Positions 29,895 to 51,470 of a stretch of DNA of 64,000 nucleotides are shown here, one piece after another. Source of the DNA: Halobacteriovoraceae bacterium (GTDB lineage Bacteria > Bdellovibrionota > Bacteriovoracia > Bacteriovoracales > Bacteriovoracaceae); the NCBI GenBank assembly GCA_963719505.1, contig CAVRCF010000005.1:1022369-1086368 (forward strand), written 5' to 3'. The position numbers and the translations under genes are program-made. Below the pieces are notes generated by a model. That model saw nothing but the letters and a program-made list of their open reading frames with translations, made no database searches and was not told the DNA's origin. Positions within the stretch are counted from its first letter, which is position 1. Each line of letters starts with the position of its first letter.

Positions 29895-29913
29895 TATACC
29901 CCTTATGGGTATA
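29895..29913. promoter_or_regulatory. CsoR-type operator candidate, box 1
   Basis: TATACCCCTTATGGGTATA (arms TATACCC/GGGTATA), 100 bp upstream of the DUF3347-YHS-copA genes. Confidence 0.6.
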
Positions 29914-30143
29914 AAAAAATAATTTATGTCATATTCCTTAATACAAAAGTAAATATGCAGGAAAAGACTTTAAGCATCTTATTAACACTTTCTTGCAATA
30001 AGTATATTTCTGGAGTCTTAAGGTTGACTAATAAAGAAGGCTTTCTATTTTTTCTCTTTGAATTTACTTTTATATTTTATTGTTGGCATGAGATTATTAT
30101 TTTTTTATCTCATTGTTAGAAATCAAATTAATCTAATCATGTA

Positions 30144-30170
30144 TGGGAGTTCGGTCTATAGGAACTCCCA
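30144..30170 (-). terminator. Stem-loop downstream of the MCO-CopB gene (no clear U-tract)
   Basis: TGGGAGTTC/GAACTCCCA 9-bp stem with a 9-nt loop, 13 nt after the stop codon. Confidence 0.35.
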
Positions 30171-30182
30171 CGTTCTTATTGT

Positions 30183-32330
30183 TTAAAACAGAGGTTTTTT
30201 TCTCTTTTTCTTCTTCGTTCGTCCTCGATTGAGATTAACCCTGACGCCCACGCCAACAGTTGGTCCAATATTGGAATCATATCTATAATTAACTCCAACG
30301 CTTGTTCTCGGAGTTGCTTGATAGTACAGGCCGGAATTAAATTCCCACTCAGGACTGTCACTAATACCAAACGCTCCTCTTCCAGCAAAATCAATGCTAA
30401 CTCTTTTGGTTATTGGAAACATTTTGGAGAGCGAAACAATTAACTTACCATCGGATCTCACATGAGTTTTCACTTCTACCCTTAACGGTATGGTGTATGC
30501 GGCACCAAGCACACTGTGCATTTGACCATCATCATACTCAACACCGGCATAAATGTTTAAGAAGCGATCAATATACCGTTTAAATAATAATTCACCATCA
30601 AGGTTGTTCAGATCATACTGATCCATCTCTAAGTTTATATCAACTTGATACTTACCTTTAGATATTTTGACTTCTAATTCAGAAGAGTTTGTTGCAACTC
30701 CAAGTTCAGCACTAGTGAAAGCAGAATCATCATGAGTCATGTAGCGAGTCCATCTTCTTTCATTTTCAACAAGTGTATCTGGTCTTTTGAAGTTTTCGTA
30801 CTTAACCAATCTCGCCATTCCCATCTTCATGTGGTAGAGGTTGTGACAGTGTAAAAACCAAATTCCCGGTTCATTTGCATGAAATTCAATTGTGATCTCT
30901 CCCATTGGTGGAACATCTACAGTATGGAATTTTGGAGCAAAATGACCTTGACCGTTTAGCACTCTAAAGAAGTGACCATGAAGGTGCATCGGATGATGCA
31001 TCATCGTTTTATTTACATATTTAATTCTAACAACTTCATTATATTTAACCATCAAGTATTTATCTTCAGAAAACGCTTTACCGTTAATCGTCCAGTTGTA
31101 TCGGTCCATATCTCCGTTTAATTCTAAAGTGTAGTCTCTTCTAGGAAGCGACATATCAAACATTGTCATTTTTGGAGATTTAATATCTTTGTAGTTTAAT
31201 CTTTTTGTCATTGGCATCTGCTCAATCTCTTCTTGAGAAACTTTCATTGTATGGCCATCGTGTCCACCACCGTGACCTCCACCGTCGCCCATACCACCAC
31301 CATGATCCATATCACCCATACTATATGGACTTGGTCTCATTTTCATGGGTACTTTTTCAATATGATGACCTTTTCCTAAAATTAAACTTCCCGCTCCAGT
31401 AATATCTTGGGCCGTAGCTTTAAACTCTAAAGCTTTATGTGCTGGCATAGTAAAAATAACATCGTAAGTCTCAGCTATACCGATTAATATTTCGTTTACC
31501 TCAAGAGGTTGAATTTCAACTCCATCTTTTGTAATGACTTTGAAGTTAAATAATTTTCCAAGGTTGGCGTAAAAGTAAGTTGAAGCTGAAGCATTTATAA
31601 GACGCAGTCTAACTGTTTCGCCAGCTTTTATATTCATTAGGTGTTGTTGTTGTTTACCATTAATTAAAAAAGCATCATACCCAACATCACTCAAGTCCAT
31701 AGGACCCATTTTAGTCCATTCACTTTTAACATAATCCCAAAACTTACCTGCTCTTATGGCACTGTAAATAGAGGCATCTGTGTTTTTCTTATAAACGTAA
31801 TAATCTCCATCCATCTTTAAGTTAGCTAGAACTTGATCTGGATGTTCATTAGTCCAATCACTCATTACGACTTCAATATCATGGTCTGTTTTAAATCTGT
31901 CATGATCGTCTTCAATTACGATTGCACCGTATAGTCCTCTTTGCTCTTGAAGTTCAGTATGTGAGTGATACCAAAATGTTCCCGTATGAATTAATGGGAA
32001 TTCAAAAACATGAGTTTTCCCCGGTTCAATAATAAGCGTATTGGAGAACTGCGGTCCATCTTGATCCCAAGGTACTAATAAGCCATGCCAGTGAAGAGTC
32101 GTTGGTTCATCAGTTTTATTATTAACTGTAATTAGGGCCGTATCACCTTTACTAAATTTTAAGGTTGGAGCAGGGATTGATCCATTAATGGCCAAAGCGT
32201 GCTTAACCTCAACTCCAGTGAAATTGACTGTTTTGTGTTCTACATTTAGTTCGTATTCTACAATCTTTGCAAATGAACTAAAACTTAGAAGAAGTGCTAA
32301 TAATAAGAAAAATTTATTCGAGATAAACAT
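30183..32330 (-). CDS. Multicopper oxidase (CopA/PcoA type) fused to a C-terminal CopB-like beta-barrel domain
   Basis: Signal peptide. Copper ligand motifs LHWHG, WYHSH, HPMHLHGH and HCHNLYHMKMGM. A Met/His/Gly-rich insert MGDMDHGGGMGDGGGHGGGHDGH. About 200 extra C-terminal aa have alternating beta-strand patterns resembling CopB (FLNIYAGVEYDD...GVNYRYDSNIGPTVGVGVRV) and end in F. Confidence 0.85.
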   Translation of the reverse strand: MFISNKFFLLLALLLSFSSFAKIVEYELNVEHKTVNFTGVEVKHALAINGSIPAPTLKFSKGDTALITVNNKTDEPTTLHWHGLLVPWDQDGPQFSNTLIIEPGKTHVFEFPLIHTGTFWYHSHTELQEQRGLYGAIVIEDDHDRFKTDHDIEVVMSDWTNEHPDQVLANLKMDGDYYVYKKNTDASIYSAIRAGKFWDYVKSEWTKMGPMDLSDVGYDAFLINGKQQQHLMNIKAGETVRLRLINASASTYFYANLGKLFNFKVITKDGVEIQPLEVNEILIGIAETYDVIFTMPAHKALEFKATAQDITGAGSLILGKGHHIEKVPMKMRPSPYSMGDMDHGGGMGDGGGHGGGHDGHTMKVSQEEIEQMPMTKRLNYKDIKSPKMTMFDMSLPRRDYTLELNGDMDRYNWTINGKAFSEDKYLMVKYNEVVRIKYVNKTMMHHPMHLHGHFFRVLNGQGHFAPKFHTVDVPPMGEITIEFHANEPGIWFLHCHNLYHMKMGMARLVKYENFKRPDTLVENERRWTRYMTHDDSAFTSAELGVATNSSELEVKISKGKYQVDINLEMDQYDLNNLDGELLFKRYIDRFLNIYAGVEYDDGQMHSVLGAAYTIPLRVEVKTHVRSDGKLIVSLSKMFPITKRVSIDFAGRGAFGISDSPEWEFNSGLYYQATPRTSVGVNYRYDSNIGPTVGVGVRVNLNRGRTKKKKRKKPLF

Positions 32331-32371: not shown

Positions 32372-32388
32372 AGCAATATAGGTGCCAA
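32372..32388 (-). promoter_or_regulatory. Consensus sigma-54 (-24/-12) promoter upstream of the MCO-CopB gene
   Basis: The minus strand reads CTTGGCACCTATATTGCTTAT, that is TGGCAC-N5-TTGC with exact GG-N10-GC spacing. About 40 nt upstream of ATG 32330. It overlaps the inverted repeat CCTATAT-N5-ATATAGG (32364-32382). Confidence 0.65.
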
Positions 32389-32578: not shown

Positions 32579-32863
32579 TTATTTACAAGTATTTTTAATA
32601 ATTTTCATTAGTTCATCAATTTTCTCATCAATATCTTTTTTATCATTTTTCATAGCCGCATCTTTCACACACCAATTGAGGTGTTCTTCTAAAATAATAA
32701 ACTCAATGGACTTTAGAGCACTTCTAATTGCTTTAATCTGATTGATAATATCAACACAATATTTTTCATTTTCAATCATGGCTTTGATACCACGAACTTG
32801 GGCTTCAATTCGATTGATTCGCGTTATTTGTTGTTTATGGTTTGCACCAACTTTTTCTTTCAT
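32579..32863 (-). CDS. csoR: CsoR-family copper-sensing repressor
   Basis: 94 aa. RINRIEAQVRGIKAMIE, with a C...H...C ligand set (EKYCVD, EEHLNWC). Confidence 0.85.
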   Translation of the reverse strand: MKEKVGANHKQQITRINRIEAQVRGIKAMIENEKYCVDIINQIKAIRSALKSIEFIILEEHLNWCVKDAAMKNDKKDIDEKIDELMKIIKNTCK

Positions 32864-33009: not shown

Positions 33010-33028
33010 TATACAATGGGGGGGTATA
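33010..33028. promoter_or_regulatory. CsoR-type operator candidate, box 2
   Basis: TATACAATGGGGGGGTATA lies between divergent csoR (start 32863) and the DUF1624-like gene (start 33050). Confidence 0.55.
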
Positions 33029-33049: not shown

Positions 33050-33751
33050 TTGTCTATGCAAAAAGAGTTAGATATTAAGACTAATGGTCGATTTGATTCA
33101 TTAGATCATATAAAAGCAATTGCTGTCATCATGATGATTATCTATCATCTATTTTTTGATCTTAGCTATTTTCGTTTGGTTGGGTTTAATGTTGAACGTG
33201 AGACTTTTTGGGTATTACAACCCAAGATCATTGTTTTTCTTTTTCTCATGTCCGCAGGTATAAGTTTATCTATAGTTCACTCAAAAAGTATAAATTGGAA
33301 AAAAATATTTCATAGGACTATTAAATTACTGGTCGTTGCCTTATCAATAAGTGTCGTCACTTATTTTATTTTTCCCACGAGGTGGGTATATTTTGGTGTC
33401 ATTCACAACATAGCAATTTCATCACTTATTTGTTTAGCATTTTTAGGAAAACCAAAACTCTCGCTTTTCGTTGGATTGTCTCTACTTTTTCCATCAGTTT
33501 TTTATCAATACGATTATCCACTGCCAAGACTTGTCCCTGCTCCTGTAGATCACGTCGCTCTCCTACCTTGGTTGGGATGCATGCTTATGGGTATATACTT
33601 CTATCACATTGGACTTCATAAGGTGGCGATTCCTGAGCACCGCTTAAAGTCTTTCTTTCGATTCTTATCGAAGAATTCATTATTAATTTATCTAGGTCAT
33701 CAAGCAGTACTCTTTCCTGTGATTTATTTAATCTTTAAACTTAAAAACTAG
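33050..33751 (+). CDS. DUF1624-type (acyltransferase-like) polytopic membrane protein
   Basis: N-terminal RFDSLDHIKAIAVIMMIIYH followed by multiple TM helices. Identification is from memory of the family signature R..slD..RG.a...M...H. Confidence 0.55.
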   Translation: MSMQKELDIKTNGRFDSLDHIKAIAVIMMIIYHLFFDLSYFRLVGFNVERETFWVLQPKIIVFLFLMSAGISLSIVHSKSINWKKIFHRTIKLLVVALSISVVTYFIFPTRWVYFGVIHNIAISSLICLAFLGKPKLSLFVGLSLLFPSVFYQYDYPLPRLVPAPVDHVALLPWLGCMLMGIYFYHIGLHKVAIPEHRLKSFFRFLSKNSLLIYLGHQAVLFPVIYLIFKLKN

Positions 33752-33765: not shown

Positions 33766-35058
33766 CTAGTTCTTTTGGGAAATAAAGTACTTTTCATAAA
33801 AGTAAATAATAATCATTAACACCAAAGAAATAACGATAACCGTTGGGTCATCTTTTCCTTTAACATATAAGAGACCTCCCAAGACAACGAAATCAAGTAA
33901 AAGTGAAACCTTTAATATCCAAGAAGAAAATTGAACCTCGTCTCGATTAGCATTTTTAAGCACTCCAAAATGAATAAGCATGTCCATCACTAAATAGAAA
34001 AGTGCTCCCATTGCAGCAATTCTACCAACATCAAATGTAATTGTTAATACACCAGCTAATACCGCGATATAAACAAGTACATGGTTTTGAACTGTTCCAG
34101 GCATTCCAAAGTGTTTATGAGGAACAAGTTCCATATCGGTCAGCATCTTTAGCATTCTTGTCACTGCAAACATACTTGCAATAATTCCAGAAACTGTAGC
34201 AATTAGTGCAACTCCAACAGTTAAGCTGACTCCGAGTTCTCCCAATATTGGTCGCGAAGCCTCGGCTAGTGAATAATTCTTAGCTTTTAATATTTCCTCT
34301 AAACTGAGACTGCTACCTACTGCCAAACTGACAAGTACATAGACGACTGTACATATAGCTAAAGAGATCAAGATTGCACGCCCAACATTCTTTTTGGGTT
34401 CTACAATTTCTCCCCCACTATTGGTAATTGTCGTAAACCCTTTGAAAGCTAAAACTCCAATGGCGATAGCTCCTATAAAGTTTAAAGGTGTCGTTCCCAG
34501 TTCGTTGGCATTAAGCGAAGGGAGTGAAACTCCACTTGCAACTAATCCTCCAACGGCCAACAAAACCAGACCAACGGCTTTTAGAATTGCCATTACAAAT
34601 GAAAAGCTTTGAATTGATTTATTACTAAGTATATTTATTAGAAATGAAAAGACTATAAGTCCTAAGCCCAACCACGGAATATATTCTGCACCAAGGCTTA
34701 TATACTTTGATTGAACAAGATAGTTACCAAATGTTCTTGCGACTAAACTTTGATTAATGATCATCGAGACGAGCATTAGAATTGCACCCCAAGCAGCTAT
34801 AACTCCTTTGCCATAAACCTTGACGAGGATCATTGCAATTCCACCAGACGAAGGATAACTATTAGACATTTTAATGTAAGTATAAGATGTGATGGATGAA
34901 ACAATGCCTGCCCCAATAAATGCCCACATCAATAAATTTCCAGCGTAGTTGGCTATTTGGCCAGTTAGAGCAAAGACTCCAGCACCAATCATTACACCAG
35001 TGCCCATTGAAACGGCACCAAGCAAAGAAATATTACTTTTTGAATCAGACTTTTCCAA
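33766..35058 (-). CDS. APC-superfamily amino acid/polyamine permease
   Basis: 430 aa with about 12 TM helices. N-terminal SLLGAVSMGTGVMIGAGVFALTG is typical of APC transporters. TTG start. Confidence 0.8.
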   Translation of the reverse strand: MEKSDSKSNISLLGAVSMGTGVMIGAGVFALTGQIANYAGNLLMWAFIGAGIVSSITSYTYIKMSNSYPSSGGIAMILVKVYGKGVIAAWGAILMLVSMIINQSLVARTFGNYLVQSKYISLGAEYIPWLGLGLIVFSFLINILSNKSIQSFSFVMAILKAVGLVLLAVGGLVASGVSLPSLNANELGTTPLNFIGAIAIGVLAFKGFTTITNSGGEIVEPKKNVGRAILISLAICTVVYVLVSLAVGSSLSLEEILKAKNYSLAEASRPILGELGVSLTVGVALIATVSGIIASMFAVTRMLKMLTDMELVPHKHFGMPGTVQNHVLVYIAVLAGVLTITFDVGRIAAMGALFYLVMDMLIHFGVLKNANRDEVQFSSWILKVSLLLDFVVLGGLLYVKGKDDPTVIVISLVLMIIIYFYEKYFISQKN

Positions 35059-35110
35059 AATAGGCTCCTCAATAAAATAGATAAAAACGTCAATAAATTC
35101 TTCTTAGAAG

Positions 35111-35129
35111 TATACACCACGGGGGTATA
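35111..35129. promoter_or_regulatory. CsoR-type operator candidate, box 3
   Basis: TATACACCACGGGGGTATA, 53 bp upstream of the APC permease start. Confidence 0.55.
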
Positions 35130-35185
35130 TCTGTCATTTTAAGAAGTTATCTAGTTTTCTAAACATTTTATAGTTTCACCTCAAC

Positions 35186-36052
35186 TCACATTGAAGAAAT
35201 TTGATCTACTGTTTCAAGTTTTAAGTTTTTATTTTCACAAGACTTATTCAATAGCCAACCAAAGATTCTTCTTCTTTGACTTCCAAAGTTAATCTCAGGA
35301 TGAAACTGTGTTCCAAGAATAGGTCTATTTTCAAACTCCATTGACTCAGCTATTTGTCCGCTATTTGAAAAAGAAGTTAACTTTATTTTTGGCCATCTTT
35401 CTTTTTTAAATTGATTAAAATAATCTACACGAACACCTTGATGGTGATACTTATAGCCTCGAAAGTGAGAATACTTTAATATTGATTTAATCAGGGAAGG
35501 TCCTTCATTTAAGCGAACTCTATCAAAAAGATATCTACGGTTTTTAATACCAAGTTCTTCTTTAATATCGACGTAAAGTGGAATCCCTTGGGATACCGCA
35601 AGCATCTGCATCCCACGACAAATTCCGAGTACAGGAAGACTCTTATAGTTTGAGTTAGCAAAATAACTTTTTAATACATCTCTTTCAAAGGGATCGCGAA
35701 TCTCACCTTCAGTACTATAGTCAACAAGAGAATCCAGCTGTTCGATTCTGGCCCTTAAATCAGGCTCTACATTTGCTGTATACAATTTGGGATTTATATC
35801 TGCACCACCAGGAATAACAATTCCATCAATATCAGAGAAGTCTGATTGGATCTGTTTTTTGTACATATCGACAATTTCAATTTTATAACCATACTTACGG
35901 GCTATCTTTTTTAAAGCTCTCCCATAGAAATATTTACATTTTGTCGTACAACCAATTTTTAGAACTTCATTTTTTGGAAGCTTACAGGTTTGGTCATGGG
36001 CCAATAAAAAAGAAGACTGAATCAATAGCGAGAAACTTAAAATTTTATACAT
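35186..36052 (-). CDS. Secreted class-I glutamine amidotransferase / peptidase C26 (gamma-glutamyl hydrolase-like)
   Basis: Signal peptide. GGADINP, the nucleophile elbow LGICRGMQML, and GTQFHPE. Confidence 0.8.
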   Translation of the reverse strand: MYKILSFSLLIQSSFLLAHDQTCKLPKNEVLKIGCTTKCKYFYGRALKKIARKYGYKIEIVDMYKKQIQSDFSDIDGIVIPGGADINPKLYTANVEPDLRARIEQLDSLVDYSTEGEIRDPFERDVLKSYFANSNYKSLPVLGICRGMQMLAVSQGIPLYVDIKEELGIKNRRYLFDRVRLNEGPSLIKSILKYSHFRGYKYHHQGVRVDYFNQFKKERWPKIKLTSFSNSGQIAESMEFENRPILGTQFHPEINFGSQRRRIFGWLLNKSCENKNLKLETVDQISSM

Positions 36053-36200: not shown

Positions 36201-36217
36201 ATACACTATGGGGGTAT
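36201..36217. promoter_or_regulatory. CsoR-type operator candidate, box 4
   Basis: ATACACTATGGGGGTAT lies between divergent peptidase C26 (start 36052) and the CxxCH lipoprotein (start 36232). Confidence 0.55.
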
Positions 36218-36231: not shown

Positions 36232-36621
36232 ATGAGAAGATCTATGAAACAATTACTTGTCATTACTACTCTATCGCTGATGACTTCTTGCTATCAAGAA
36301 GTCAATTCCAATAGCTTTGACGACCGCTACTCAGTGTCTAATGGTATTGATACTAGTACAGCAAATGGTAAAAGACTCTCCGATGCATATGATGTCTTAA
36401 GTAATAAATGCATGAATTGTCACACTGGTTATCATAATAATTGGTCAGATTTTACTACTGATTCAAAGTGGATAGAAGCAAACCTCGTTGAGTCCAATAA
36501 TGCTTATCTCTCATCACTGGTGCTTCGAATGAAAAACACTGGTGGAAATATGCCTAAAGACAATCCACAAATAAAAGAAGAAGATTTTGATATTATTATT
36601 GAGTGGATCGATAATATTTAA
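36232..36621 (+). CDS. Small lipoprotein with one CxxCH motif (cytochrome c-like domain)
   Basis: Lipobox LSLMTSC, CMNCH, later GGNMPKD..EEDFDIIIEWI. The track ORF begins at 36208, inside box 4, so ATG 36232 or 36244 is preferred. Confidence 0.6.
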   Translation: MRRSMKQLLVITTLSLMTSCYQEVNSNSFDDRYSVSNGIDTSTANGKRLSDAYDVLSNKCMNCHTGYHNNWSDFTTDSKWIEANLVESNNAYLSSLVLRMKNTGGNMPKDNPQIKEEDFDIIIEWIDNI

Positions 36622-37436
36622 AAATAAGTTCTTAAATCCAACCCCCAAAAGCTAGATGGATACTCATTAAGACTTCCTAGTGTGATCGCAAATGATATGT
36701 TCTCAAAACTCCATTCTCCAGAGAATTGATATCCAAAAGAGAAACTCTCTTCCCCATCAATTCTTCCTCCTGAAGGAGCATTATAGTCGCCTCGTTTAAA
36801 TAAAAGAGGAATACCAAACTTAACAAAGACTCTGTCTTTTGGTCGCCAAATAAGACTTGTCATAGACATCAATGCATCAACTGGAATGTCGCTTTGGATA
36901 AACTTTATACTATTTGAATCTTCGCCAACTGTTGCTGTGAGGTAAGCATAGCAAAGACTCGACTCAATTCCCCATAAGGCATTCATTTTTCGATAGCCAC
37001 CACCTAAACATGGGCCTCTTTCTTTAGAGTTTAGAGAAGTTACATTTCCAGAAGAGTCTTTTAGTTCAAGGTCATAGTTCCAAGTTAGATAACTCAGACT
37101 AACAAAGTAGTCTGAGTTAAATTTACTTCTATTAAACTTATCAAGTTCTACATCGTAGAGTTCATATAGTACTTCAAAGTCATACTCATCACTTTGCTCA
37201 AATGAGTCTGATTCCTCAAGCATACTGAATAGCTCTTGAAAAACAGAGGACGAAGGCTTTGTAACACCTCTTTGGATCTCTACCAGTTGTGTTTCAATCT
37301 CATGATAAAAGCTTTGTTGATTTTTAGCCTCTAGTGAGCTTGCTATAGCGGAGCTCACCTGAACAAAAGTAAAAAAAGCAATAAATATATAAATCGATCT
37401 TAAAACCATAAATGTAATTGTCCTGCAAAATCCCAA
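36618..37436 (-). CDS. Putative outer-membrane beta-barrel protein
   Basis: Signal peptide (from ATG 37409: MVLRSIYIFIAFFTFVQVSSAIA). Alternating-hydrophobicity strands. C-terminal LDLRTYF ends in an aromatic residue. Confidence 0.45.
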   Translation of the reverse strand: MGFCRTITFMVLRSIYIFIAFFTFVQVSSAIASSLEAKNQQSFYHEIETQLVEIQRGVTKPSSSVFQELFSMLEESDSFEQSDEYDFEVLYELYDVELDKFNRSKFNSDYFVSLSYLTWNYDLELKDSSGNVTSLNSKERGPCLGGGYRKMNALWGIESSLCYAYLTATVGEDSNSIKFIQSDIPVDALMSMTSLIWRPKDRVFVKFGIPLLFKRGDYNAPSGGRIDGEESFSFGYQFSGEWSFENISFAITLGSLNEYPSSFWGLDLRTYF

Positions 37437-38548
37437 GAGTCATCAGTAACTGAATTGGGGCTATAACTTTTCGTGTTGTACAAATCAATTCGTAACTCAA
37501 CACCCTGGACAAGGAAATACTGTAATCCAGGGCCAAGTCTATATGTTTCGGATTCCAAAGTTACATCTGGTTGAAAGTATTCACCTGTCACAAATAGATA
37601 TGTTCCCCTTCGAAGTAGAATGTGGTTTTGAACAAAAGCAAAGGAGCTCTCAACTTGTTCCTGAGTTGCCAAAAATTTCTGTCTCTTTCTTCCAAGTTCC
37701 ACTAAAATACTCGAGCCTTTGGAGAGACCAAACTTTCCATGAACAGAAAGTAAAGTATTTTCAATATAGTCAGATGTTGAGTTTAAAAATGAAAGACCTG
37801 GCTTTGATGAATTTGAAAAGTTATATTCTAATTTTGTTGAAAAACCTTTTTGTCGAAGATCTTCAGACTGGTACAAACTTCCAATAAATCCGTTGACTCC
37901 TATCTCATATTTATCTTCGTTAAAATGTAGCAATACTCCGTGTGATTGATCGTTTTGAGCTAGCTCAGTGACAGATCGACTAAAGGCAATATGATCTGGG
38001 ACTCTAATCCCATAAACCTTATCCATCATTCCAATATAGAAACCAAAGTTATTAGTTGGTCTTAGACCTATATAATGTTCTCTGGATCGATAATTTCCAA
38101 CATCCTCTCCTTTTTGTGACCTAGGTGTAGGCGCGTAGCCATAGCTAATTGATGCAATATACTTATCATTTCCCTGGAGCCGAAAAACAGTATTGATGTC
38201 AGCTTGCATGTGTATATATTCAGCCTCACTACCGCCTTTATCTATATTTCTCTTCAAGCTTAGACCACGGTAATTTACCGAAGGTCTAATCCAAGAATTA
38301 AAGGCCTTCATATATAGGAAACCACTATCTTGTGCAATTTCATCCTCAGATTTCTCGGAGTCATGCACCCACCTATCAGAGATGGCCGTCGCAGAAACTG
38401 CTCTTCCATAATCATTTAATGGTCCATTACCATAAGGGTTATAATGGCACGTGAGGCAAGCGTTATAGCCTTGCCCTATAAAATTGGGATAAGAATAAGA
38501 ATTAAAACTAAGAAGTGTAAAAAAAAGAATGAGTGATTTTTTATTCAT
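37400..38548 (-). CDS. Putative outer-membrane beta-barrel protein with an N-terminal CxxCH motif
   Basis: Signal peptide. GYNACLTCHYNPYGNGPLNDYGRA right after the cleavage region. The body is beta-strand-like and ends QLHLWF. Confidence 0.5.
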   Translation of the reverse strand: MNKKSLILFFTLLSFNSYSYPNFIGQGYNACLTCHYNPYGNGPLNDYGRAVSATAISDRWVHDSEKSEDEIAQDSGFLYMKAFNSWIRPSVNYRGLSLKRNIDKGGSEAEYIHMQADINTVFRLQGNDKYIASISYGYAPTPRSQKGEDVGNYRSREHYIGLRPTNNFGFYIGMMDKVYGIRVPDHIAFSRSVTELAQNDQSHGVLLHFNEDKYEIGVNGFIGSLYQSEDLRQKGFSTKLEYNFSNSSKPGLSFLNSTSDYIENTLLSVHGKFGLSKGSSILVELGRKRQKFLATQEQVESSFAFVQNHILLRRGTYLFVTGEYFQPDVTLESETYRLGPGLQYFLVQGVELRIDLYNTKSYSPNSVTDDSWDFAGQLHLWF

Positions 38549-38569
38549 TTGTTACTTTATACATTAAAA

Positions 38570-38905: not shown

Positions 38906-38924
38906 TCTAAATTCCTTTGTTTAT

Positions 38925-43325: not shown

Positions 43326-43328
43326 TAA

Positions 43329-43751
43329 CTATTTCGCTTTTTTAATTCCATTCACGATAATCATATTCACACTACTACTAGTAAAAACTTTTCCTTTTAC
43401 AGCAACTTGTTCTTCAGCATATTTTAGAAATTTTTTATTTGTTTCTCTCAAGTCGGCATGGCCTTCACCTGAGATTTGATAAATCTTGTTGTCTTTAGTT
43501 AAAATACCTATTGGAAGTCCTTTTTCGGCACAATCTTTAAAGCAATCTTTATGATTCGACCCTTTTGAATCGTGCTTTATATAGCAAGTTAACCCTACTA
43601 GTTGTCCAGAAATTAAAACATCAGCTTTTTCAATTGAATCATGACTTGAACTCGCCGCTTTCCCTTTGGCATGTTCTTCGTCACCATGAGCAAAAACTGA
43701 ACTTGTCGACACCAATACTAATAAAGAAAAGATTGTTAATATTTTATTCAT
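43329..43751 (-). CDS. Secreted 140-aa protein with a His-rich N-terminus, unknown family
   Basis: Start ATG 43751 after GGAGG; the track ORF extension to 43991 runs through box 7. Signal peptide MNKILTIFSLLVLVSTSSVFA followed by HGDEEHAKGK..SSHD. Confidence 0.55.
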   Translation of the reverse strand: MNKILTIFSLLVLVSTSSVFAHGDEEHAKGKAASSSHDSIEKADVLISGQLVGLTCYIKHDSKGSNHKDCFKDCAEKGLPIGILTKDNKIYQISGEGHADLRETNKKFLKYAEEQVAVKGKVFTSSSVNMIIVNGIKKAK

Positions 43752-43772: not shown

Positions 43773-43789
43773 ATACCCCCCAAGGGTAT
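43773..43789. promoter_or_regulatory. CsoR-type operator candidate, box 7
   Basis: ATACCCCCCAAGGGTAT lies between divergent starts 43751 (-) and 43918 (+). Confidence 0.55.
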
Positions 43790-43917: not shown

Positions 43918-45207
43918 ATGAAGAAAGACTCAAATGATCGGAATGAAGAGATAAGCGCAGAAACTCTAAATAAAGGGTGCTCATGCATCACTTTTGATAA
44001 AGAATTACTAAAGTCAAATTTCCCTACAAATTCGCTTAAATTTCATTTATTAGAAAACTTAATCTTAACTCATCCAACAATATTTTCCTCTATAGCTGTT
44101 TTTTTATCTAAAGCGAATTACGAAATAATAACTCAAGTCATTTTTACGATTGAAAAAATAATTAGTTCATCCTTGTATCAAGAACAAAGTTTAAATAGAA
44201 TCTCAGGAATTTCTCCATTTCATTTTGGTCCAAAAGGAGTTTTTATGGGTTACGACTTTCATATCTCGAGTGAAGGTCCAAAACTGATAGAAATCAATAC
44301 AAACGCTGGAGGTGCGCTGTTGAGTCTAGAATTAGCCAAAGCCCAACAGCGCTGTTGCATATCTCAGGACTTATACCACAAGTCTACAATTGAGCTTTCT
44401 AAACTTGAATCTATATTTATCGAAATGTTTATTAACGAGTGGAAAAGTCAAAAGGGTAATATAAAAATGGGATTAGTCGCAATTGTCGACAATGAACCTG
44501 AATCACAATTTCTCTATCCAGAGTTTCAATTATTTCAATACCTATTTTCAGAATATAGTATTCGCTCAATTATAGTTGCCCCTCGTGACTTAAAATGGAC
44601 AAATGGAAATCTAACCTTCGGCAATGAAGTAGTCGATCTCGTCTACAATAGGTTAACCGATTTTTATTTCGAAGAAGAAGAAAATAGTGATCTTCTCAGT
44701 GCTTATAAATCAGGTTCTACAGTTTTTACGCCTTCCCCTATCCATCATGCTCTTTATGCAAACAAGTTAAACCTTATCAAACTTAGTAATAAGCATGCGC
44801 TAGATAAATTAAAGGTCTCCACAAAAGATCAAGAGATACTTTTAAAAGTTATCCCCGAAACGGAAGAAGTTCTAAAAGAAAACAATTTAGAATTATGGAG
44901 TAGAAGAAAATCACTATTTTTTAAACCTATTGCCGGTTATGGTAGTAAAGCTGCCTATCGCGGAGATAAAATCACAAGGAAAGTCTGGGAACACGTACTT
45001 AACAGTAGCTATATCGCTCAAAAAATTGTTCCACCAGGAGAAAGACTTGTAACAGTTGATAATAATAAAACAAACCTCAAGTTAGATTTAAGAGCTTATG
45101 TTTTTGATGGCAAGATACAACTTATGTCGTCACGACTTTATTCCGGTCAGACTACTAACTTCAGAACGGAAGGTGGAGGCTTCGCTCCAGTATTTATAAT
45201 TCCATAA
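43918..45207 (+). CDS. ATP-grasp-fold-like enzyme (family unresolved)
   Basis: GYDFHISSEGPKLIEINTNAGGALL, FFKPIAGYGSKAAYRG and LDLRAYVFDGKIQLMSSRLY..NFRTEGGGFAPV resemble ATP-grasp ligase strands. Start chosen at ATG 43918 (track 43846). Confidence 0.5.
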   Translation: MKKDSNDRNEEISAETLNKGCSCITFDKELLKSNFPTNSLKFHLLENLILTHPTIFSSIAVFLSKANYEIITQVIFTIEKIISSSLYQEQSLNRISGISPFHFGPKGVFMGYDFHISSEGPKLIEINTNAGGALLSLELAKAQQRCCISQDLYHKSTIELSKLESIFIEMFINEWKSQKGNIKMGLVAIVDNEPESQFLYPEFQLFQYLFSEYSIRSIIVAPRDLKWTNGNLTFGNEVVDLVYNRLTDFYFEEEENSDLLSAYKSGSTVFTPSPIHHALYANKLNLIKLSNKHALDKLKVSTKDQEILLKVIPETEEVLKENNLELWSRRKSLFFKPIAGYGSKAAYRGDKITRKVWEHVLNSSYIAQKIVPPGERLVTVDNNKTNLKLDLRAYVFDGKIQLMSSRLYSGQTTNFRTEGGGFAPVFIIP

Positions 45208-45320: not shown

Positions 45321-45888
45321 TTACCAGATATAAGAAATTCCGGCTCCTGCTCCAAAACGGCTTTCATAACTTGTAAAAATGGATAGATTCTTTGTTGCAA
45401 TATATTCAAGGCCCAGGTTCCAGACATAATCTTTTTCCCAAGTAGTTATTATCTGGCAACTGTTCTTTCCAACCAAAATCATTCGTAACTTCCCAGTACC
45501 CATAAATTGCAACTCTTGAAAAAAGTAAGTAATCCACATCGAAAGAGAGTTGAAGGTTTAAATCAGAGTCAATTCTCACATTTGAATCTACAAAGTAAGG
45601 TAAGAGCCATTTAATACCTAACGTTCCAACCGTCTCAGTCGCATCAAGTTCTTCCTCTACCTTATTTTCTGTATTTGCTCCTAAATAAACTCTAAAGTAA
45701 TCAGATAAAAAACGATCATAACTTATATCCGCCTCTAGGTTTTTATTCCAACCGTATTCAGCACCGAGGTTCAATTGATTTCGTGTGTTTGAACTTGTTA
45801 TTTCAATTGAACTATAATGACTTGCAGCTTTTGTCTCGGCCCATGTATACCAATGCTTATCCATGTCTAAAACATTTGATAAGTGCAA
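45321..45888 (-). pseudogene. CopB-like beta-barrel region, split from the MCO gene and internally frameshifted
   Basis: Two overlapping frames (45406-45888 and 45321-45539) together parallel the C-terminal CopB-like domain of the 30183-32330 protein. There is no signal peptide at the ATG 45888 start. Ends GAGAGISYIW. Confidence 0.55.
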
Positions 45889-47482
45889 AATTATCTAACC
45901 TTGAATCTCTCTTGTCTCCATAACTAAAGATTCGCGCCATCCCTCCCTTCATATGGTAGAGAACGTGGCAGTGAAAAAACCAATCTCCCGCTTCATTTGC
46001 TGGAAATTCAATAGTTACTGACTTCATAGGTTCAACGTCTACAGTATGCTTAAGAGGAGAATATTCTCCATTTTTATTTAACACTCTGAAAAAATGTCCG
46101 TGCAGATGCATCGGATGGTGCATCATCGTTTTATTATTTAACACAATTCGAATTACTTCACCTCGTCTAATCTTAATCTTATCGACTTCTGATAAAGTTT
46201 TCCCGTTTAAACTCCAGACATAGCGCCACATATTTCCCGTAAGATTTAATTTAATATTTCTGACATTATTATCAGAGAGGTTTGTTTTGACAGGAGACTT
46301 TAAAATATCATAACTAAATTCTGCCTTATTAGAGTTCATCTTCTCATCCACTTCCATGTCATCACTTTTCATATTATGATCCATCATTTTATGTGATGAG
46401 TGGTCCATCTTTTTCATATTAGACATTGAGTGATCCATTTCCATACCAGAACTCATATCCATGTTGTGATTCATGCCACCTGAGTTTTTCGTTCTCTCAA
46501 TATAATCAGGAGCTTTTACGACCATCGCTTTATGGACTTTACCACGGCCAAGTATTGCAGTGGTAAAACCCGAACCATCTTGAGCCGAAGCCCTAAATTC
46601 AATACTTCCGGCGCTAGGAATTGTAACAATATAATCATAAGTCTCGGCAATTGCATGGAGTACTTTTGATGTCTTAACTGGAACAACATCGACACCATCA
46701 GAGGAAACCAACTTTGCATTAGCATCTCCAATTGTCGTCCAGAAATAAGTTGAAGCTGCTGCATTTATAACTCTAACTCGAACTCTTTCACCGGCTTTTA
46801 ATTCGGGGTACTGAATCCTCTTTTTACCATTAATTAAAAATGCATCATAATAAACATCAGAAATATCTATTCCCGGCATTCTCATTTTCCAAAGCCCTAA
46901 AAGACCGCCTAAGGCTCCATTTGAGATTGCATCAGCGATACTAACAGCCGTTTTCTTTTTTATGCTGTACCAATCACTCCCTCTTTTTAGAGTTCGCAAA
47001 ACCTCATTTGGATTTTCATCTGTCCAATCAGATAGTACAAGCACAAGATCTCTATCATATTTTAACTTTTGATTTTTAGGTTTAATAACAATTGAGCCAT
47101 AAACGCCTTGTTGCTCCTGTAAACCTGTATGCGAGTGATACCAATATGTCCCCGAATGTGATATTGGAAAACGGTATGAAAACGTCTCACCGGGCCTAAT
47201 AGGTGGTGTTGTTAAGTAAGGCACGCCGTCTTGAAAGTTAGGTAAAATGAGCCCATGCCAATGAATAGAGGTCTCAACATCCATATTATTAGTGACATTA
47301 ATCTCAGCAGTGTCCCCCTCTGTGAATGTTAATACCGGTCCCGGAATAGAATCATTTATGGCCATTCCCACTCTTTCTTTACCAGAGAATGAAACATTTT
47401 TTTCATCTATTGTAAGATCATAGCTTTTTGCAAAACTAGAAAGGCTTATAAGAATTGAAAGCATAAGAATGAGTAACTTCAC
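45857..47482 (-). CDS. Multicopper oxidase (second copy, CopA/PcoA type)
   Basis: GTG 47482 after GGAG gives signal peptide VKLLILMLSILISLSSFA. Motifs IHWHG, WYHSH, HPMHLHGH and HCHVLYHMKGGM. Met/His-rich insert MNHNMDMSSGMEMDHSMSNMKKMDHSSHKMMDH. Confidence 0.85.
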   Translation of the reverse strand: MKLLILMLSILISLSSFAKSYDLTIDEKNVSFSGKERVGMAINDSIPGPVLTFTEGDTAEINVTNNMDVETSIHWHGLILPNFQDGVPYLTTPPIRPGETFSYRFPISHSGTYWYHSHTGLQEQQGVYGSIVIKPKNQKLKYDRDLVLVLSDWTDENPNEVLRTLKRGSDWYSIKKKTAVSIADAISNGALGGLLGLWKMRMPGIDISDVYYDAFLINGKKRIQYPELKAGERVRVRVINAAASTYFWTTIGDANAKLVSSDGVDVVPVKTSKVLHAIAETYDYIVTIPSAGSIEFRASAQDGSGFTTAILGRGKVHKAMVVKAPDYIERTKNSGGMNHNMDMSSGMEMDHSMSNMKKMDHSSHKMMDHNMKSDDMEVDEKMNSNKAEFSYDILKSPVKTNLSDNNVRNIKLNLTGNMWRYVWSLNGKTLSEVDKIKIRRGEVIRIVLNNKTMMHHPMHLHGHFFRVLNKNGEYSPLKHTVDVEPMKSVTIEFPANEAGDWFFHCHVLYHMKGGMARIFSYGDKRDSRLDNFALIKCFRHG

Positions 47483-47484
47483 AT

Positions 47485-47587
47485 TTTTCTCCAAATTGTA
47501 TTTTTGAATTAGAATCTTTTGAGACTCTTTTATCCAATTATTAATCACTTTAATTTCGGCTACCGTTAATTTATAGTCCAAGTGCAT
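47485..47587 (-). pseudogene. Remnant of the 3' end of a Haem_bd-like gene, read through into the MCO frame
   Basis: HLDYKLTVAEIKVINNWIKESQKILIQ parallels HWDSGLTENEIFEVNKWIKDSKLILRQ at the C-terminus of the 42795-43325 protein. Nothing homologous lies upstream. Confidence 0.4.
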
Positions 47588-47770
47588 CTGTCTATAATTG
47601 CTCTATTAGTAAGGTGTAATATAAGATTGCACATTACGTAATATAAAACAAAAAGACTTACCATCAATATAAGAAACCAGCTCCTATATTGAATCACCCT
47701 AATGGCTAGACAAAACTGATTTCTCCGGACTTAAAACTTATTTAAAGCCTGCGTTCTACAAACAATTCTT

Positions 47771-48241
47771 TTAATATTTTTCAAATATTTTTGTGTGTCC
47801 TGTACTATCAAAAGAATAAACATTGAACTTCTCTTTATGTTTTCCATACTCCATTCCGGGACTTCCCATGGGCATATCAGGAACAACTAAACCTTTTTTA
47901 CGATTTACATCTTCAAGAAATTTTTTGATGCTAGCGGCAGGAACATGTCCTTCAAAAACAAATTTCCCCATAACAGCGGTGTGGCAACTTCTTTTATCTT
48001 GCGGAACACCTAAGGAGTCCTTCATTTCTGATAAGTTATCAATTGGTTTTTCTGTTAGTTTGAATCCATTATCCCTCATATGCTCAACCCACTTAGTGCA
48101 ACATCCACAACTAGGATTTTTATAAACAATCATTTCTTGCTCTAAGTATGAAGTTTCAGTTGTTGTTTTTGAAGTAGGAGCATCATTTGTGCAAGACACT
48201 CCAACAAACAATAAAAAGACTAAAATTAAATTTTTTCTCAT
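47771..48241 (-). CDS. copG: DUF411/CopG-like periplasmic metal-binding protein
   Basis: Start ATG 48241 after AGGGAG. Lipoprotein-like signal LFVGVSC. CGCC motif (PSCGCCTKW), RSCHTAV, PDMPMGSPGME. Confidence 0.75.
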   Translation of the reverse strand: MRKNLILVFLLFVGVSCTNDAPTSKTTTETSYLEQEMIVYKNPSCGCCTKWVEHMRDNGFKLTEKPIDNLSEMKDSLGVPQDKRSCHTAVMGKFVFEGHVPAASIKKFLEDVNRKKGLVVPDMPMGSPGMEYGKHKEKFNVYSFDSTGHTKIFEKY

Positions 48242-48378: not shown

Positions 48379-48395
48379 ATACCCCCCACTGGTAT
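48379..48395. promoter_or_regulatory. CsoR-type operator candidate, box 8
   Basis: ATACCCCCCACTGGTAT lies between divergent copG-like (start 48241) and YceI-like (start 48614) genes. Confidence 0.55.
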
Positions 48396-48613: not shown

Positions 48614-49111
48614 ATGAAGTTACTCATTATATTCACACTTTTATTACAAGCTAATATCAGTTTCGCACTTAATAAGTCTATATCTATAGATGTAGAGCTA
48701 TCCCCTGCCGGCTCTTTTAAAATAAAGTCTAATCGAATTAAAGGAAAAGTTTATCTAAAAGATGGAAGCCTTGAAGCTAATGATATAAAAATATTAGTTA
48801 AAAACCTTAAAACAGGTATAGACCTTAGAGATGAGCATTTAAAGAAAAAGCTTGGGATTGAAAATGATCCTAAAGCGGCTCTAAATTTGATCTCTGCGCA
48901 AGGAAAAAATGGAACTGGAAAAGGTATTTTTAAAGTCCTAGGAAAAACTCAACAGTCAACATTCACTTACAAAAAAGTTGGAAACTCCGAGATAGCCGCT
49001 TCTTTCACGCTAAGTCTCAAGGAATTTGGAATTGATGGTGTTAGTTATATGGGTATAGGAGTCCAGGACATAGTTACAATAAATATAACCTTACCATATA
49101 TAGAAAAGTAA
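48614..49111 (+). CDS. YceI-like periplasmic protein
   Basis: ATG 48614 after AAAGGAG. Signal peptide. TGIDLRDEHLKKKL resembles the YceI motif (T....RD.HL). Confidence 0.55.
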   Translation: MKLLIIFTLLLQANISFALNKSISIDVELSPAGSFKIKSNRIKGKVYLKDGSLEANDIKILVKNLKTGIDLRDEHLKKKLGIENDPKAALNLISAQGKNGTGKGIFKVLGKTQQSTFTYKKVGNSEIAASFTLSLKEFGIDGVSYMGIGVQDIVTINITLPYIEK

Positions 49112-49201
49112 TATTTTTCATTTCAAAGAAAGCATTTATCCTCCGTTAAGAGGTAGACGCCAAGAGTGAGGTCGCGAAAAAGAGTTAGTATTCTTATAAT
49201 G

Positions 49202-50764
49202 CTATATTTCTTTAGAGTTATTAGAGAGACACTGAATAGGTGAATTTTTCTTAATATAATCCTCCATAATGTCCCAATAAAAGATCCCAGTATGATGAAA
49301 GTATGGCAGCTTGTTCTTTAGCTTTCTAGGAACTAAAGATCTTAAAGTATGTGCAACTTCCAAAGGCATTGATAATGAATATAATTTATTTCGCTTTACC
49401 TTTTTATTACCAACTCTAAGTTTCCAAATTAAAGTTCTTCCTCCAATAATTGGAACTCTACGAGGTACTACCCACCTCTTAAAGCTAATGCCATCAAGAT
49501 TGAGTCCAGCTGTCATGGAACTGTTTTGGAGTACGATCATAAGCAACTTTAAATACTTACCGTGAATTGAAAACTTAGTTATCTCCCATCCATTATCTTC
49601 ATATTTACCTAAGTGAGGAAAGTTATCAATCATATCAATAAATCGAATTGGCCCTGCAGGAATAAAATCTCCCTCAAAATTTGCCAAATGAAGTCCTACA
49701 TCAGAGTCAAGAGCTTCTTTTTGCATCCTTGCCATATGTTTTCCCCAACATGATGGTCGCAGCACCAGAACACCATTTTGAAAGCCCGAAAGATCAATTT
49801 TACTGTATCCTATCACTTGCTCAAGATTACGATCAAAGTATTTTGATAAGTTATTATATGCTTTTTGTACAAATAACTTAATTCCTACATCTTCAGTTGT
49901 ATCCTCTTCTATTGGAATTAAATTATATTTTAAAACTTTAACTGGCTTGCCCCTGACAACATCAATTAAAAGAGAGCCAACATATCGTGAGTTTGATCCA
50001 GCTTGCACTATGGGAATTGGTTGGTTCATTTTATTAAAAATTATTTTTTCTTCGTTTAAAGCAGTATGACTATGTCCACCAATAATAAGATCAATGTTCT
50101 TTGATTTTGCAGCTAATTTTTTATCTTCACTTAAACCTATATGTGTTAATGCAATGACTAAGTCTTTGCCTTCACTTTTGGCCTTGTCTGCCTGATCATT
50201 ACCAACTTTTAAATATGGTGCAATATGTCCAGGTTTTATAGGATATTGAAAATGGGGAGCAGAAGTTGTTAGTCCTATTACCCTTATGGAAATCTTATTC
50301 TTAGTTGTATCAAAAAAAGGTTTTACAGTATCACCAATATTCATTTCAGGTGTTGCATGCAAGTTTGCTGATATAATTTGGGTCGATATATTGGCACGAT
50401 TTATTTGTGAACTAAGTACATCTCCCCCTAACATATAATCATGATTTCCAAGGACACTAACCTCAACACCAAGTTTTTCTAATGCTTTAAAAGAATCGAC
50501 TCCTTCATTTGATAAGAAAAATGATGTCCCCTCTCCAAAGTCTCCTGCATCAACTTGCAAAACTTCAATATTATTATTTTTTGCTTCTTCGTGAATAGTA
50601 TTAATTATCGACTTTACTTTTGCATACCCTCCGCTACCAACACGAGGTCCCTTAAAGTAAGAGTGTAAGTCGTTTGTATGGATAATTTGTAATAATTTGC
50701 AATGTCCGACTGTGGGATAGCAAAAGAAAAATAATAAAAAAATGATATACTTCAATTTTTCCAC
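49202..50764 (-). CDS. Secreted metallophosphoesterase / 5'-nucleotidase (UshA-like)
   Basis: HTNDLHS, DAGDFGEGT, GNHDY, GGHSHT, plus a C-terminal nucleotidase-like domain. Confidence 0.8.
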   Translation of the reverse strand: MEKLKYIIFLLFFFCYPTVGHCKLLQIIHTNDLHSYFKGPRVGSGGYAKVKSIINTIHEEAKNNNIEVLQVDAGDFGEGTSFFLSNEGVDSFKALEKLGVEVSVLGNHDYMLGGDVLSSQINRANISTQIISANLHATPEMNIGDTVKPFFDTTKNKISIRVIGLTTSAPHFQYPIKPGHIAPYLKVGNDQADKAKSEGKDLVIALTHIGLSEDKKLAAKSKNIDLIIGGHSHTALNEEKIIFNKMNQPIPIVQAGSNSRYVGSLLIDVVRGKPVKVLKYNLIPIEEDTTEDVGIKLFVQKAYNNLSKYFDRNLEQVIGYSKIDLSGFQNGVLVLRPSCWGKHMARMQKEALDSDVGLHLANFEGDFIPAGPIRFIDMIDNFPHLGKYEDNGWEITKFSIHGKYLKLLMIVLQNSSMTAGLNLDGISFKRWVVPRRVPIIGGRTLIWKLRVGNKKVKRNKLYSLSMPLEVAHTLRSLVPRKLKNKLPYFHHTGIFYWDIMEDYIKKNSPIQCLSNNSKEI

Positions 50765-51007
50765 CTTTTGTTCTACTAGCTAAGAAACTCCATACATGCT
50801 TGTTGGTAACACAAGAATACCTCACCTTGGGTACAGTTATAAAGATGGAAAATAAGTCGATATACTTTTGAATTAAACAATTATTAAGAAAATTTTACGG
50901 ACTGTAGTCCAAAAATATCTTGAGAATGTACCCTTTGCCACAAAGCAGCCACATAAAACCAAGGCAAGATAGATGATATCAACTACTTAGATATTATAAG
51001 CGTAATT

Positions 51008-51470
51008 GACAATTTGGCAGTCAGAACAATGACTCCTGCTCCGATCATTACACCAGTCTCCATTGAGACGGTACCAAGCAAAGAAATATTACTCTTTTGA
51101 ATCCGACTTGTCTAAAACAGGCTCCTCAGTAAAAAAGATATAAACTTCAATAATATTTTTTACTACTGAGGTACACCATGGGGATATAATTCTCATCTTT
51201 AGAAAGTCTCTAGTTACTTTTTAACATTTTATTATTTTGCCTTTAATCCAATTTAGAGAATTACTCTATTAATTGAAGTTTTAGTTTTTTATTTTTCAAG
51301 GTTTTTCCATTAGCCAATCAAGTCTTCTTCTTCTTTGGCTTCCTATTATTTTTAGGATGAAACTGAGTTCCAAAATTCGGACTACGTCAAACTCCATTGA
51401 TTTTGAAATTTTCCCATCATTTGCAAAAAAATTAATTTTATCTGTGGGCACCTATGTTTTTGAGGGATTC
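51008..51470 (-). pseudogene. Decayed duplicate of the permease-5'-end / CsoR-box / peptidase-C26-3'-end junction (copy of about 34955-35410)
   Basis: By-eye alignment finds shared runs such as ATCATTACACCAGT, CCAAGCAAAGAAATATTACT, AGGCTCCTCA, a degenerate box GTACACCATGGGGATAT (51171-51187), CTTCTTCTTTG and GGATGAAACTG. The permease fragment SNISLLGTVSMETGVMIGAGV lacks a start and ends after ~35 codons. Confidence 0.6.

Follow-up and report, generated by a model that had tools for sequence, protein, structure and literature searches.

Seven CsoR-type operator boxes mark a candidate expanded copper regulon in a Halobacteriovoraceae bacterium

In a stretch of 64,000 nucleotides from the genome of a Halobacteriovoraceae bacterium (assembly GCA_963719505.1, contig CAVRCF010000005.1, positions 1,022,369 to 1,086,368; hereafter the window, with coordinates counted from its first nucleotide), seven boxes of the form ATAC-N9-GTAT are spread over 18.5 kb of a cluster that combines recognisable copper genes with many genes of unknown function. 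They very probably serve as operators for CsoR, a repressor that senses Cu(I) and whose gene lies in the same cluster (32579-32863). On this reading CsoR itself is canonical and its regulon expanded: a copper switch of the ordinary kind is probably in charge of an unusually large number of genes, many of which are functionally uncharacterised. The evidence lies in the sites themselves, their non-randomness and placement, their match to the known CsoR operator, the residues of the regulator, and pairs of site and gene that recur across genomes. An earlier prediction made from this DNA had proposed an unusually large, clustered CsoR regulon. The in silico tests run here support that proposal, but "unusually large" has to be read in relative terms, as the RicR regulon of Mycobacterium tuberculosis already comprises about six promoters.

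Results

The boxes are non-random and intergenic

Intact boxes start at positions 29896, 33011, 35112, 36201, 39716, 43773 and 48379. All seven sequences listed in the original prediction were recovered where it had placed them; its count of at least eight is reduced to seven intact boxes, since the copy at 51171 is decayed and a C5-A-C5 sequence represents a half-site (see below). With 0.70 occurrences of ATAC-N9-GTAT expected in the window, 10 were counted, a number that none of 100 shuffles preserving dinucleotide composition reached. Only the 9-nucleotide (nt) spacing is enriched; when the two arms are set 5-8 or 10-13 nt apart, each spacing gives 0-2 matches, and the three further ATAC-N9-GTAT matches (16154, 18461 and 52854) are without C or G tracts. 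Under a position weight matrix derived from the seven sites, these score 20-27 bits and the runner-up position in the 64 kb reaches 8.3 bits. Because a matrix trained on seven sites and then used to score them is a circular test, the published operator architecture was also used as an independent pattern (TAC-N9-GTA in which the first half has three or more consecutive C or the second half three or more consecutive G); it matches seven positions in the window, identical to those of the original prediction. Although 83% of the region is coding, all seven boxes fall between genes (probability of about 3.6e-6), and four of them (33011, 36201, 43773 and 48379) lie between divergent genes, in agreement with what had been predicted.

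The boxes are GC-rich palindromes in AT-rich DNA and could in principle be non-regulatory, arising by chance, as a mobile or repetitive extragenic palindromic (REP)-like repeat, or as an RNA hairpin or terminator. The sixth box was indeed flagged as terminator-like by a consensus scan; this assignment was rejected, as there is no co-directional gene upstream to terminate. The chance of a non-regulatory origin is close to negligible. The shuffles do not reach the observed count and only one spacing is enriched. The flanks of the seven boxes are mutually unrelated (mean identity of 35% to one another), and the boxes are therefore not copies of a mobile repeat. Three boxes base-pair through their 4-bp arms only and thus form no useful hairpin, and an Rfam scan of the window returned tRNA only, with no known RNA element at the boxes. 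Moreover, the sites are kept at orthologous promoters despite unalignable spacers (see below). Together, shuffles, flanks, pairing and conservation essentially refute the chance, repeat and hairpin explanations.

The regulator and the operator are of the canonical CsoR type

The csoR gene (32579-32863, minus strand) codes for a protein of 94 amino acids that matches Pfam PF02583 (Trns_repr_metal; E = 3.8e-27, residues 9-90), which confirms the single csoR gene proposed for the cluster. The nearest solved structures by sequence are those of the CsoR proteins of Streptomyces lividans (4adz; E = 4e-18) and Geobacillus thermodenitrificans (4m1p). Residues C36, H61 and C65 occupy the positions of the Cu(I) ligands in an alignment with S. 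lividans CsoR (YC...EEHLRHC), giving the x-C-H-C fingerprint, and this Cys-His-Cys triad is kept in all five CsoR proteins of the clade, that of the window and those encoded at four of five closely related loci (L001, L003, L004 and L005; see below). The DNA-contact residues are present as well: R15-I-N-R18 corresponds to R54-L-R-R57, and Q42 to Q81, of S. lividans CsoR, where the RLXR motif in helix 1 and the Gln in helix 2 are required for DNA binding (PMC3902906).

The operator consensus of the streptomycete CsoR is ATATACCCCTNAGGGGTATAT (PMC3902906). Isothermal titration calorimetry and mutagenesis have shown that the TAC-X9-GTA inverted repeat flanking G-tracts is needed for CsoR binding, and this arrangement is common to the operators of several species (PMC3902906). 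The consensus of 31 sites, the seven of the window and 24 found in the related loci, is ATACCCCc-n-gGGGGTAT; it fits the published operator, and the operator found here is therefore canonical. The canonical CsoR targets are csoR and copA (PMC4938975). Both are boxed in the window, csoR by box 2 and the copA operon by box 1, and this arrangement is kept in the relatives.

Up to 11 transcription units adjoin the seven boxes

On our best reading the seven operators serve up to 11 transcription units with about 21 genes. Recognisable copper genes among those of the cluster are copA, those of two multicopper oxidases fused to CopB-like barrels, and those of a DUF411 and a YHS protein. Box 1 (29896-29912, ATACCCCTTATGGGTAT) precedes the p203-YHS-copA operon (26471-29762, minus strand) by 134 nt, counted to the ATG at 29762; the operon encodes p203, weakly resembling a Leptospira protein of the LIC13259 family, a His-rich YHS-domain protein and the P1B-type ATPase CopA; orthologues of copA and p203 are boxed in L001/L005. 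Box 2 (33011-33027, ATACAATGGGGGGGTAT) is located between the divergent csoR (148 nt to the ATG) and the gene for a DUF1624/HGSNAT_cat membrane protein (33050-33751, plus strand; PF07786, E = 2.4e-48; 29 nt to the ATG), and is the predicted autoregulatory site of csoR. Box 3 (35112-35128, ATACACCACGGGGGTAT) lies 54 nt upstream of the TTG start codon of a gene for an APC-family amino-acid permease (33766-35058, minus strand) and overlaps the spacer and the -10 of a minus-strand promoter-like site, ATGACA-17-TATACT.

Box 4 (36201-36217, ATACACTATGGGGGTAT) separates two divergent genes, one for a secreted peptidase C26/class-I glutamine amidotransferase-like protein (35186-36052, minus strand; 149 nt) and cyt137 (36232-36621, plus strand; 15-27 nt), which codes for a CxxCH lipoprotein related to the Haem_bd domain. 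Box 5 (39716-39732, ATACCCAGTAGGGGTAT) is found 36 nt ahead of the p258-p94-p382-p272 operon (36618-39680, minus strand), measured to its ATG at 39680. p258 is a CxxCH lipoprotein whose CxxCH domain is common to cyt137 and the Haem_bd protein described below. p94 and the C-terminus of p258 (38621-39701) have in common a conserved SCHRH-x4-DP-x-ECH motif, with two Cys and three His, which looks like a metal site and for whose domain no significant model was found in Pfam or NCBIfam. p382 is predicted to form a 16-strand porin-like outer-membrane barrel (predicted local distance difference test, pLDDT, 83; predicted template modelling score, pTM, 0.80), with OmpT, PorB and OprP as its best matches (E down to 2e-12); it has more than 800 homologues, and an N-terminal CxxCH is invariant in an alignment of 45 of them.

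Box 6 (43773-43789, ATACCCCCCAAGGGTAT) is found between the divergent p140-Haem_bd operon (42795-43751, minus strand; 22 nt) and the gene for p453, a circularly permuted ATP-grasp-like enzyme (43918-45207, plus strand; 129 nt). On the p140 side the box is immediately upstream of a GGAGG ribosome-binding site; p140 is a secreted Cys/His-rich protein, and the orthologue of the Haem_bd protein (PF14376) is boxed in L003 and L004. The ATP-grasp label comes from homologue annotations, some homologues carrying PF14403 or PF03738 and one bearing the UniRef name "circularly permuted type 2 ATP-grasp"; p453 itself gave no Pfam, NCBIfam or PDB sequence match. Its family has thousands of homologues, and the nearest one adjoins Haem_bd and CusCBA-like genes at a locus with no CsoR box. 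Box 7 (48379-48395, ATACCCCCCACTGGTAT) lies between the divergent DUF411 (CopG-like)-MCO2 operon, MCO2 being a multicopper oxidase (MCO) followed by a frameshifted CopB-like barrel (45406-48241, minus strand; 87-138 nt), and the gene for a YceI-like protein (48614-49111, plus strand; PF04264; 102-219 nt, depending on the start codon). The open reading frames (ORFs) of MCO2 and the CopB-like protein (45406-47587) overlap in different frames and jointly match MCO1, a single MCO-CopB fusion encoded elsewhere in the cluster; the split is a frameshift, from either pseudogene decay or an error in the sequence. About 34 codons at the beginning of the MCO2 ORF encode a stretch 47% identical to the C-terminal end of the Haem_bd protein; they are a relic of an upstream gene since lost.

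The gene labels of the original prediction were upheld: those of DUF1624/HGSNAT_cat, APC permease, peptidase C26 and YceI by Pfam, with DUF411 likewise identified, and those of the CxxCH lipoproteins by their relation to Haem_bd, of a beta-barrel by the structure prediction for p382 and of the ATP-grasp-like enzyme by its homologues.

The boxes of the window are 15-150 nt from start codons and would sit inside core promoters. All 31 boxes, of the window and of the relatives, have an ORF start within 150 nt on one or both sides, mostly at 20-40 nt. This agrees with the positions of -20 to -180 relative to start codons reported for CsoR sites (PMC4938975). At the yceI promoters of L001, L003, L004 and L005, the box fills the gap between a TTGACA-like hexamer, which directly adjoins its 5' end, and a -10-like hexamer on its other side.

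Pairs of box and gene recur in related genomes

Forty-five homologues of p382 were aligned, and 80 loci were then fetched, with 10-kb flanks, from species-representative genomes. Homologues of p382 occur in Halobacteriovorax, Bacteriovoracaceae and other Bdellovibrionota. The five nearest loci, L001 to L005 (p382 identity of 62-77%), have the gene set of the window in rearranged order: MCO, p258, p94, p382, p272, C26, DUF1624, cyt137, YceI, CsoR and CopA. These five loci hold 24 boxes in 79 kb, against five weak matches in the 1.27 Mb of the remaining 75 loci. Four of the boxed loci have csoR no more than 10 kb away; none of the 75 others does. Among the 75, four loci (L076, L014, L070 and L015) come from genomes that also hold a boxed locus; they carry a more distant paralogue of the module, and no box was found in their 73 kb. 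As these unboxed paralogous loci and the boxed ones belong to the same four genomes, the boxes do not merely track phylogeny or genome composition.

In the relatives the boxes recur in the yceI-csoR intergenic region and upstream of MCO, p258, Haem_bd, C26, p203 and copA, and box-gene pairs are conserved in four other genomes although the flanking spacers cannot be aligned. Boxes keep an almost fixed distance to the start codon, 35-39 nt for p258 in six loci (the window and the five relatives) and 28-33 nt for yceI in four. Pairs are seen in three to five genomes for csoR, copA, MCO, p258-p94-p382-p272 (boxed in L001 to L005), yceI-cyt137(-DUF1624), Haem_bd and C26. The DUF1624 orthologue lies within a boxed yceI-cyt137 operon in L001 and L004, and the C26 orthologue has its own box in L004 and is part of a boxed operon in L001; for p203 a boxed orthologue was found in L001 alone, so that this pair is known from two genomes. 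Double boxes are present at some promoters of the relatives (L001 6337/6363; L002 3077/3266; L005 12932/13142). The L001 pair is upstream of the MCO gene with 26 bp between the boxes, and dual CsoR sites at such a spacing have been reported in gut Firmicutes (PMC4938975).

A box is also located 58-96 nt upstream of a gene for an extracytoplasmic function (ECF)-type sigma factor (Sigma70_r2 and r4), divergent from Haem_bd, in L001 (16823), L003 (10520), L004 (9676) and L005 (20974). In those four relatives CsoR may therefore drive a secondary sigma-factor cascade; no homologue of this sigma factor is encoded in the window.

Across Bdellovibrionota a compact operon of four genes encodes YceI, a CxxCH lipoprotein, a CxxCH porin-like barrel and a p272-like protein (59-80 of the 80 loci; cyt137 in 66). 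Two members of this YceI-cyt137-p382-p272 module are without a Pfam family. Several genomes have two copies, of which the copper-cluster copy alone is boxed, and in Peredibacter and B. stolpii the neighbours of the module are unrelated housekeeping genes that offer no functional hint. As the module is widespread and its neighbours elsewhere are unrelated, the boxed clade appears to carry a copper-dedicated paralogous copy of a phylum-wide module. Upstream of the module in the 75 unboxed loci no shared palindrome rose above the shuffled background, the best dyads being present in 4-5 loci, and a literature search found no paper relevantly linking YceI to copper resistance.

How far the regulon extends

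Several observations weigh against a regulon of the full extent. CsoR binding, copper responsiveness and co-induction are inferred. Box counts and background for the source genome are those of the 64-kb window. A generic sigma-70 consensus scan of the region gave no enrichment (72 found versus 75.9 expected), and promoter assignments were therefore made by eye. Boxes 33011, 35112 and 36201 have a one-sided G-tract and are weaker palindromes than the boxes of the relatives, so their affinity may be low. Where a box lies between divergent genes, control may extend to just one of them. No orthologues of the APC permease, the ATP-grasp-like enzyme, DUF411, p140 or the His-rich proteins were found at the related loci; for the first four, which thus have no boxed counterpart in the relatives, membership of the regulon is argued from this genome.

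Two parts of the cluster have no intact box. MCO1 (30183-32330, minus strand), a multicopper oxidase fused to a CopB-like barrel, has none of its own. The sole exact sigma-54 -24/-12 consensus in the window (TGGCAC-N5-TTGC, TGGCACctataTTGC, 32373-32387, minus strand) lies 43 nt before the MCO1 start, whereas the MCO orthologues in four relatives are boxed and have no sigma-54 element. MCO1 would be reached either by read-through from csoR or from the sigma-54 promoter; its promoter may have been replaced, putting the oxidase under a different signal. Genes for an NtrC-type sigma-54 activator (22044-23399) and a 7TMR-DISM histidine kinase (18655-21171) are found 9-14 kb from MCO1. The second part codes for the His-rich secreted proteins H148, H187, H259 and p129 (40194-42420, plus strand). 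The original prediction had counted His-rich helical paralogues among the boxed genes; weakly paralogous His-rich proteins are present, but their operon has no box. The C5-A-C5 sequence upstream, which had been taken for an atypical box (TACCCCCACCCCCTA, 40096-40110), shows just a single TAC arm and departs from the pattern. With a half-site only and no orthologues in the relatives, this operon is at most a possible member of the regulon. A 30-bp tandem repeat at 42392-42499 (3.6 copies, 91% matches) spans the p129 stop codon and in another frame reads as YGNQNRGHGR repeats; the end annotated for p129 may thus be in error or vary.

Beyond box 7, a gene for a 5'-nucleotidase-like protein (49202-50764) has no intact box linked to it, and is followed by a non-coding relic of about 840 bp (50765-51603). 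Here, as had been predicted, lies a degenerate copy of the box (GTACACCATGGGGATAT, 51171-51187), in which one GTA arm is now ATA. On one side of it is a remnant of the APC N-terminus (51007-51096; 73% identity over 30 amino acids) and on the other a remnant of the peptidase C26 C-terminus (51284-51448; 45% identity over 56 amino acids). As these remnants flank the site, it is a decayed duplicate of the junction that holds box 3 (35058-35186).

CsoR could bind the boxes and yet meaningfully regulate only csoR, the copA operon, MCO and DUF411, the accessory genes (DUF1624, APC, C26, ATP-grasp and yceI) being bystanders or served by weak sites. Four boxes lie between divergent genes, where one side could be a bystander; the three least palindromic boxes are those next to accessory genes; yceI is 102-219 nt from box 7; and four of the genes are the ones lacking boxed orthologues. 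Yet box 3 serves the APC permease alone and box 5 the p258 operon alone. In addition, C26, DUF1624, yceI, cyt137, Haem_bd and the p258-p382 operon are boxed, or are part of boxed operons, in three to five genomes, where the box is 28-39 nt from the accessory gene's own start codon. Such partial regulation seems possible for genes known from this genome alone and unlikely for C26, DUF1624, yceI, cyt137, Haem_bd and the p258 operon, and for the cluster as a whole we give it a small share of the probability, well below that of control of the expanded set by CsoR.

A neighbouring RcnR-like protein has its own box

A second protein of the CsoR/RcnR family is encoded at 52551-52829, so that two family members with distinct operators stand side by side. 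This protein has the H-C-H-H fingerprint of the Ni/Co type (H3, C35, H60 and H64), with His in place of the last Cys of the CsoR triad, and its gene adjoins that of a His-rich cation diffusion facilitator (CDF) exporter (51604-52870). A box of the RcnR type-1 style, TACT-GGGG-TAT-AGTA (52856-52870), lies 24 nt before its start codon. The region 51604-52870 is probably an autoregulated rcnR/dmeR-dmeF pair.

With this paralogue encoded 4 kb from the cluster, and with the operators of the CsoR family resembling one another, the seven boxes might be read by the RcnR-like protein or by some other factor, the signal then not being copper. We consider this very unlikely. The paralogue has its own, different box, and no homologue of it was found in the five boxed related loci, four of which have csoR. 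The seven boxes fit the CsoR consensus, whereas they do not show the single G-tract and TACT/AGTA arms of the RcnR type-1 operator, having TAC/GTA arms and mostly split C/G tracts. The gene content, with CopA, two MCOs, DUF411 and YHS, is mostly that of copper functions. CsoR thus remains by far the best candidate for the regulator that reads the boxes.

The metal genes of the window, comprising MerR/MerT-like genes (24074-25824), the CsoR cluster and the RcnR-CDF pair, lie between a tRNA-Gly gene (13575-13650) and type IV secretion/conjugation genes (53637-63502), the latter including those for a TraG P-loop ATPase (56064-57938) and a coupling protein (62123-63502). The GC skew flips at about 54 kb. 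The copper cluster may be cargo of an integrative conjugative element; within the window, no att-like repeat of at least 13 nt of the tRNA-Gly 3' end and no integrase were found.

Discussion

From the mechanism known for the family, apo-CsoR tetramers would bind the TAC-N9-GTA/G-tract pseudopalindromes at low copper, and CsoR bound within or just downstream of core promoters would block RNA polymerase; that repression works by occlusion of the core promoter is suggested by the placement of the boxes. A rise in cytoplasmic Cu(I) would lead to its binding by C36, H61 and C65, upon which CsoR would leave the DNA and up to 11 units, with about 21 genes, would be derepressed together. Among these would be the CopA operon, csoR itself, the DUF411-multicopper oxidase operon and the Haem_bd proteins; an outer-membrane/periplasmic module made of the CxxCH lipoproteins, the porin-like barrel and YceI; and a group that may handle a small molecule, namely the secreted C26 peptidase, the APC permease, the DUF1624 protein and the ATP-grasp enzyme.

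In S. lividans, two CsoR tetramers bind each operator. Operators are found there at csoR, copZA1 and copZA2 (PMC3902906). The system described here resembles that of S. lividans in the TAC-X9-GTA operator with G-tracts, in the Cys-His-Cys triad, in the RLXR-type motif and the Gln, and in its predicted autoregulation and control of a P-type ATPase. It differs in that the Gram-positive organism has three scattered operators, for csoR and copZA only, as against seven within 18.5 kb; here, in a Gram-negative predator, the boxes would serve periplasmic and outer-membrane proteins, and a gene for CopZ was not seen. In M. tuberculosis, ricR, lpqS, mymT, socAB, Rv2963 and mmcO make up the RicR regulon, with about six promoters (PMC3944814). 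It likewise has a Cu(I) repressor of the CsoR family, a palindromic motif and targets beyond the efflux ATPase (a multicopper oxidase, a lipoprotein and a permease). However, the RicR loci are dispersed and include a metallothionein and small ORFs, whereas the units are contiguous here and include the copA operon, together with an outer-membrane module that would be impossible in a mycobacterium. The CsoR regulons of Firmicutes (copZA of Bacillus subtilis, csoR-copA-copZ of Listeria monocytogenes, and those of gut Firmicutes) consist essentially of csoR and copA, with or without a chaperone (PMC4938975). They have the same motif, the upstream placement, self-regulation, control of copA and dual sites (the latter as in the relative L001), but about 18 further genes would be added here.

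The Ni/Co sensors RcnR of Escherichia coli and DmeR of rhizobia have the same fold and also recognise operators with G/C tracts; their H-C-H-H fingerprint and type-1 operator, with a single G-tract and TACT/AGTA arms, set them apart from the x-C-H-C fingerprint and TAC/GTA arms found here. The cop/pco and cue/cus clusters of proteobacteria are run by the two-component systems CopRS or CusRS, or by the MerR-type CueR, and not by CsoR. The present cluster has in common with them a multicopper oxidase with a CopB-like barrel, periplasmic DUF411/CopG proteins and a P-type ATPase, but differs in the fusion of MCO with CopB and in having no genes for CopC/D or CusCBA.

Since the regulator and the operator are textbook examples, no new mechanism is implied. 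What is new is the host lineage, the tight clustering and the content in envelope genes and genes of unknown function; regulator, operator and logic were already known. A literature search found no paper on CsoR or copper in Halobacteriovorax or Bdellovibrio-like organisms. The cluster would equal or exceed RicR, its largest known relative, and would be the first such regulon described in Bdellovibrio-like predators; CsoR, rather than CueR, CusRS or CopRS, would here govern the periplasmic and outer-membrane copper functions of a Gram-negative cell.

A more far-reaching interpretation, which we put forward tentatively and consider possible rather than probable, is that in one marine clade of the Bacteriovoracaceae a single CsoR took over the whole of the envelope copper defence, including a dedicated copy of the operon for YceI, a CxxCH lipoprotein, a CxxCH porin and a second putative barrel, together with a possible peptide or small-molecule route (C26, APC, DUF1624 and ATP-grasp). 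If so, all these families would be copper-handling proteins, which might form a porin-cytochrome-like outer-membrane conduit or a copper-ligand pathway, and regulation by CsoR would be the first functional handle on these families. For annotation, the cluster offers a testable link to copper for about a dozen families of unknown function, among them the p258/p94 domain, p382, p272, p140, the His-rich proteins and the ATP-grasp family.

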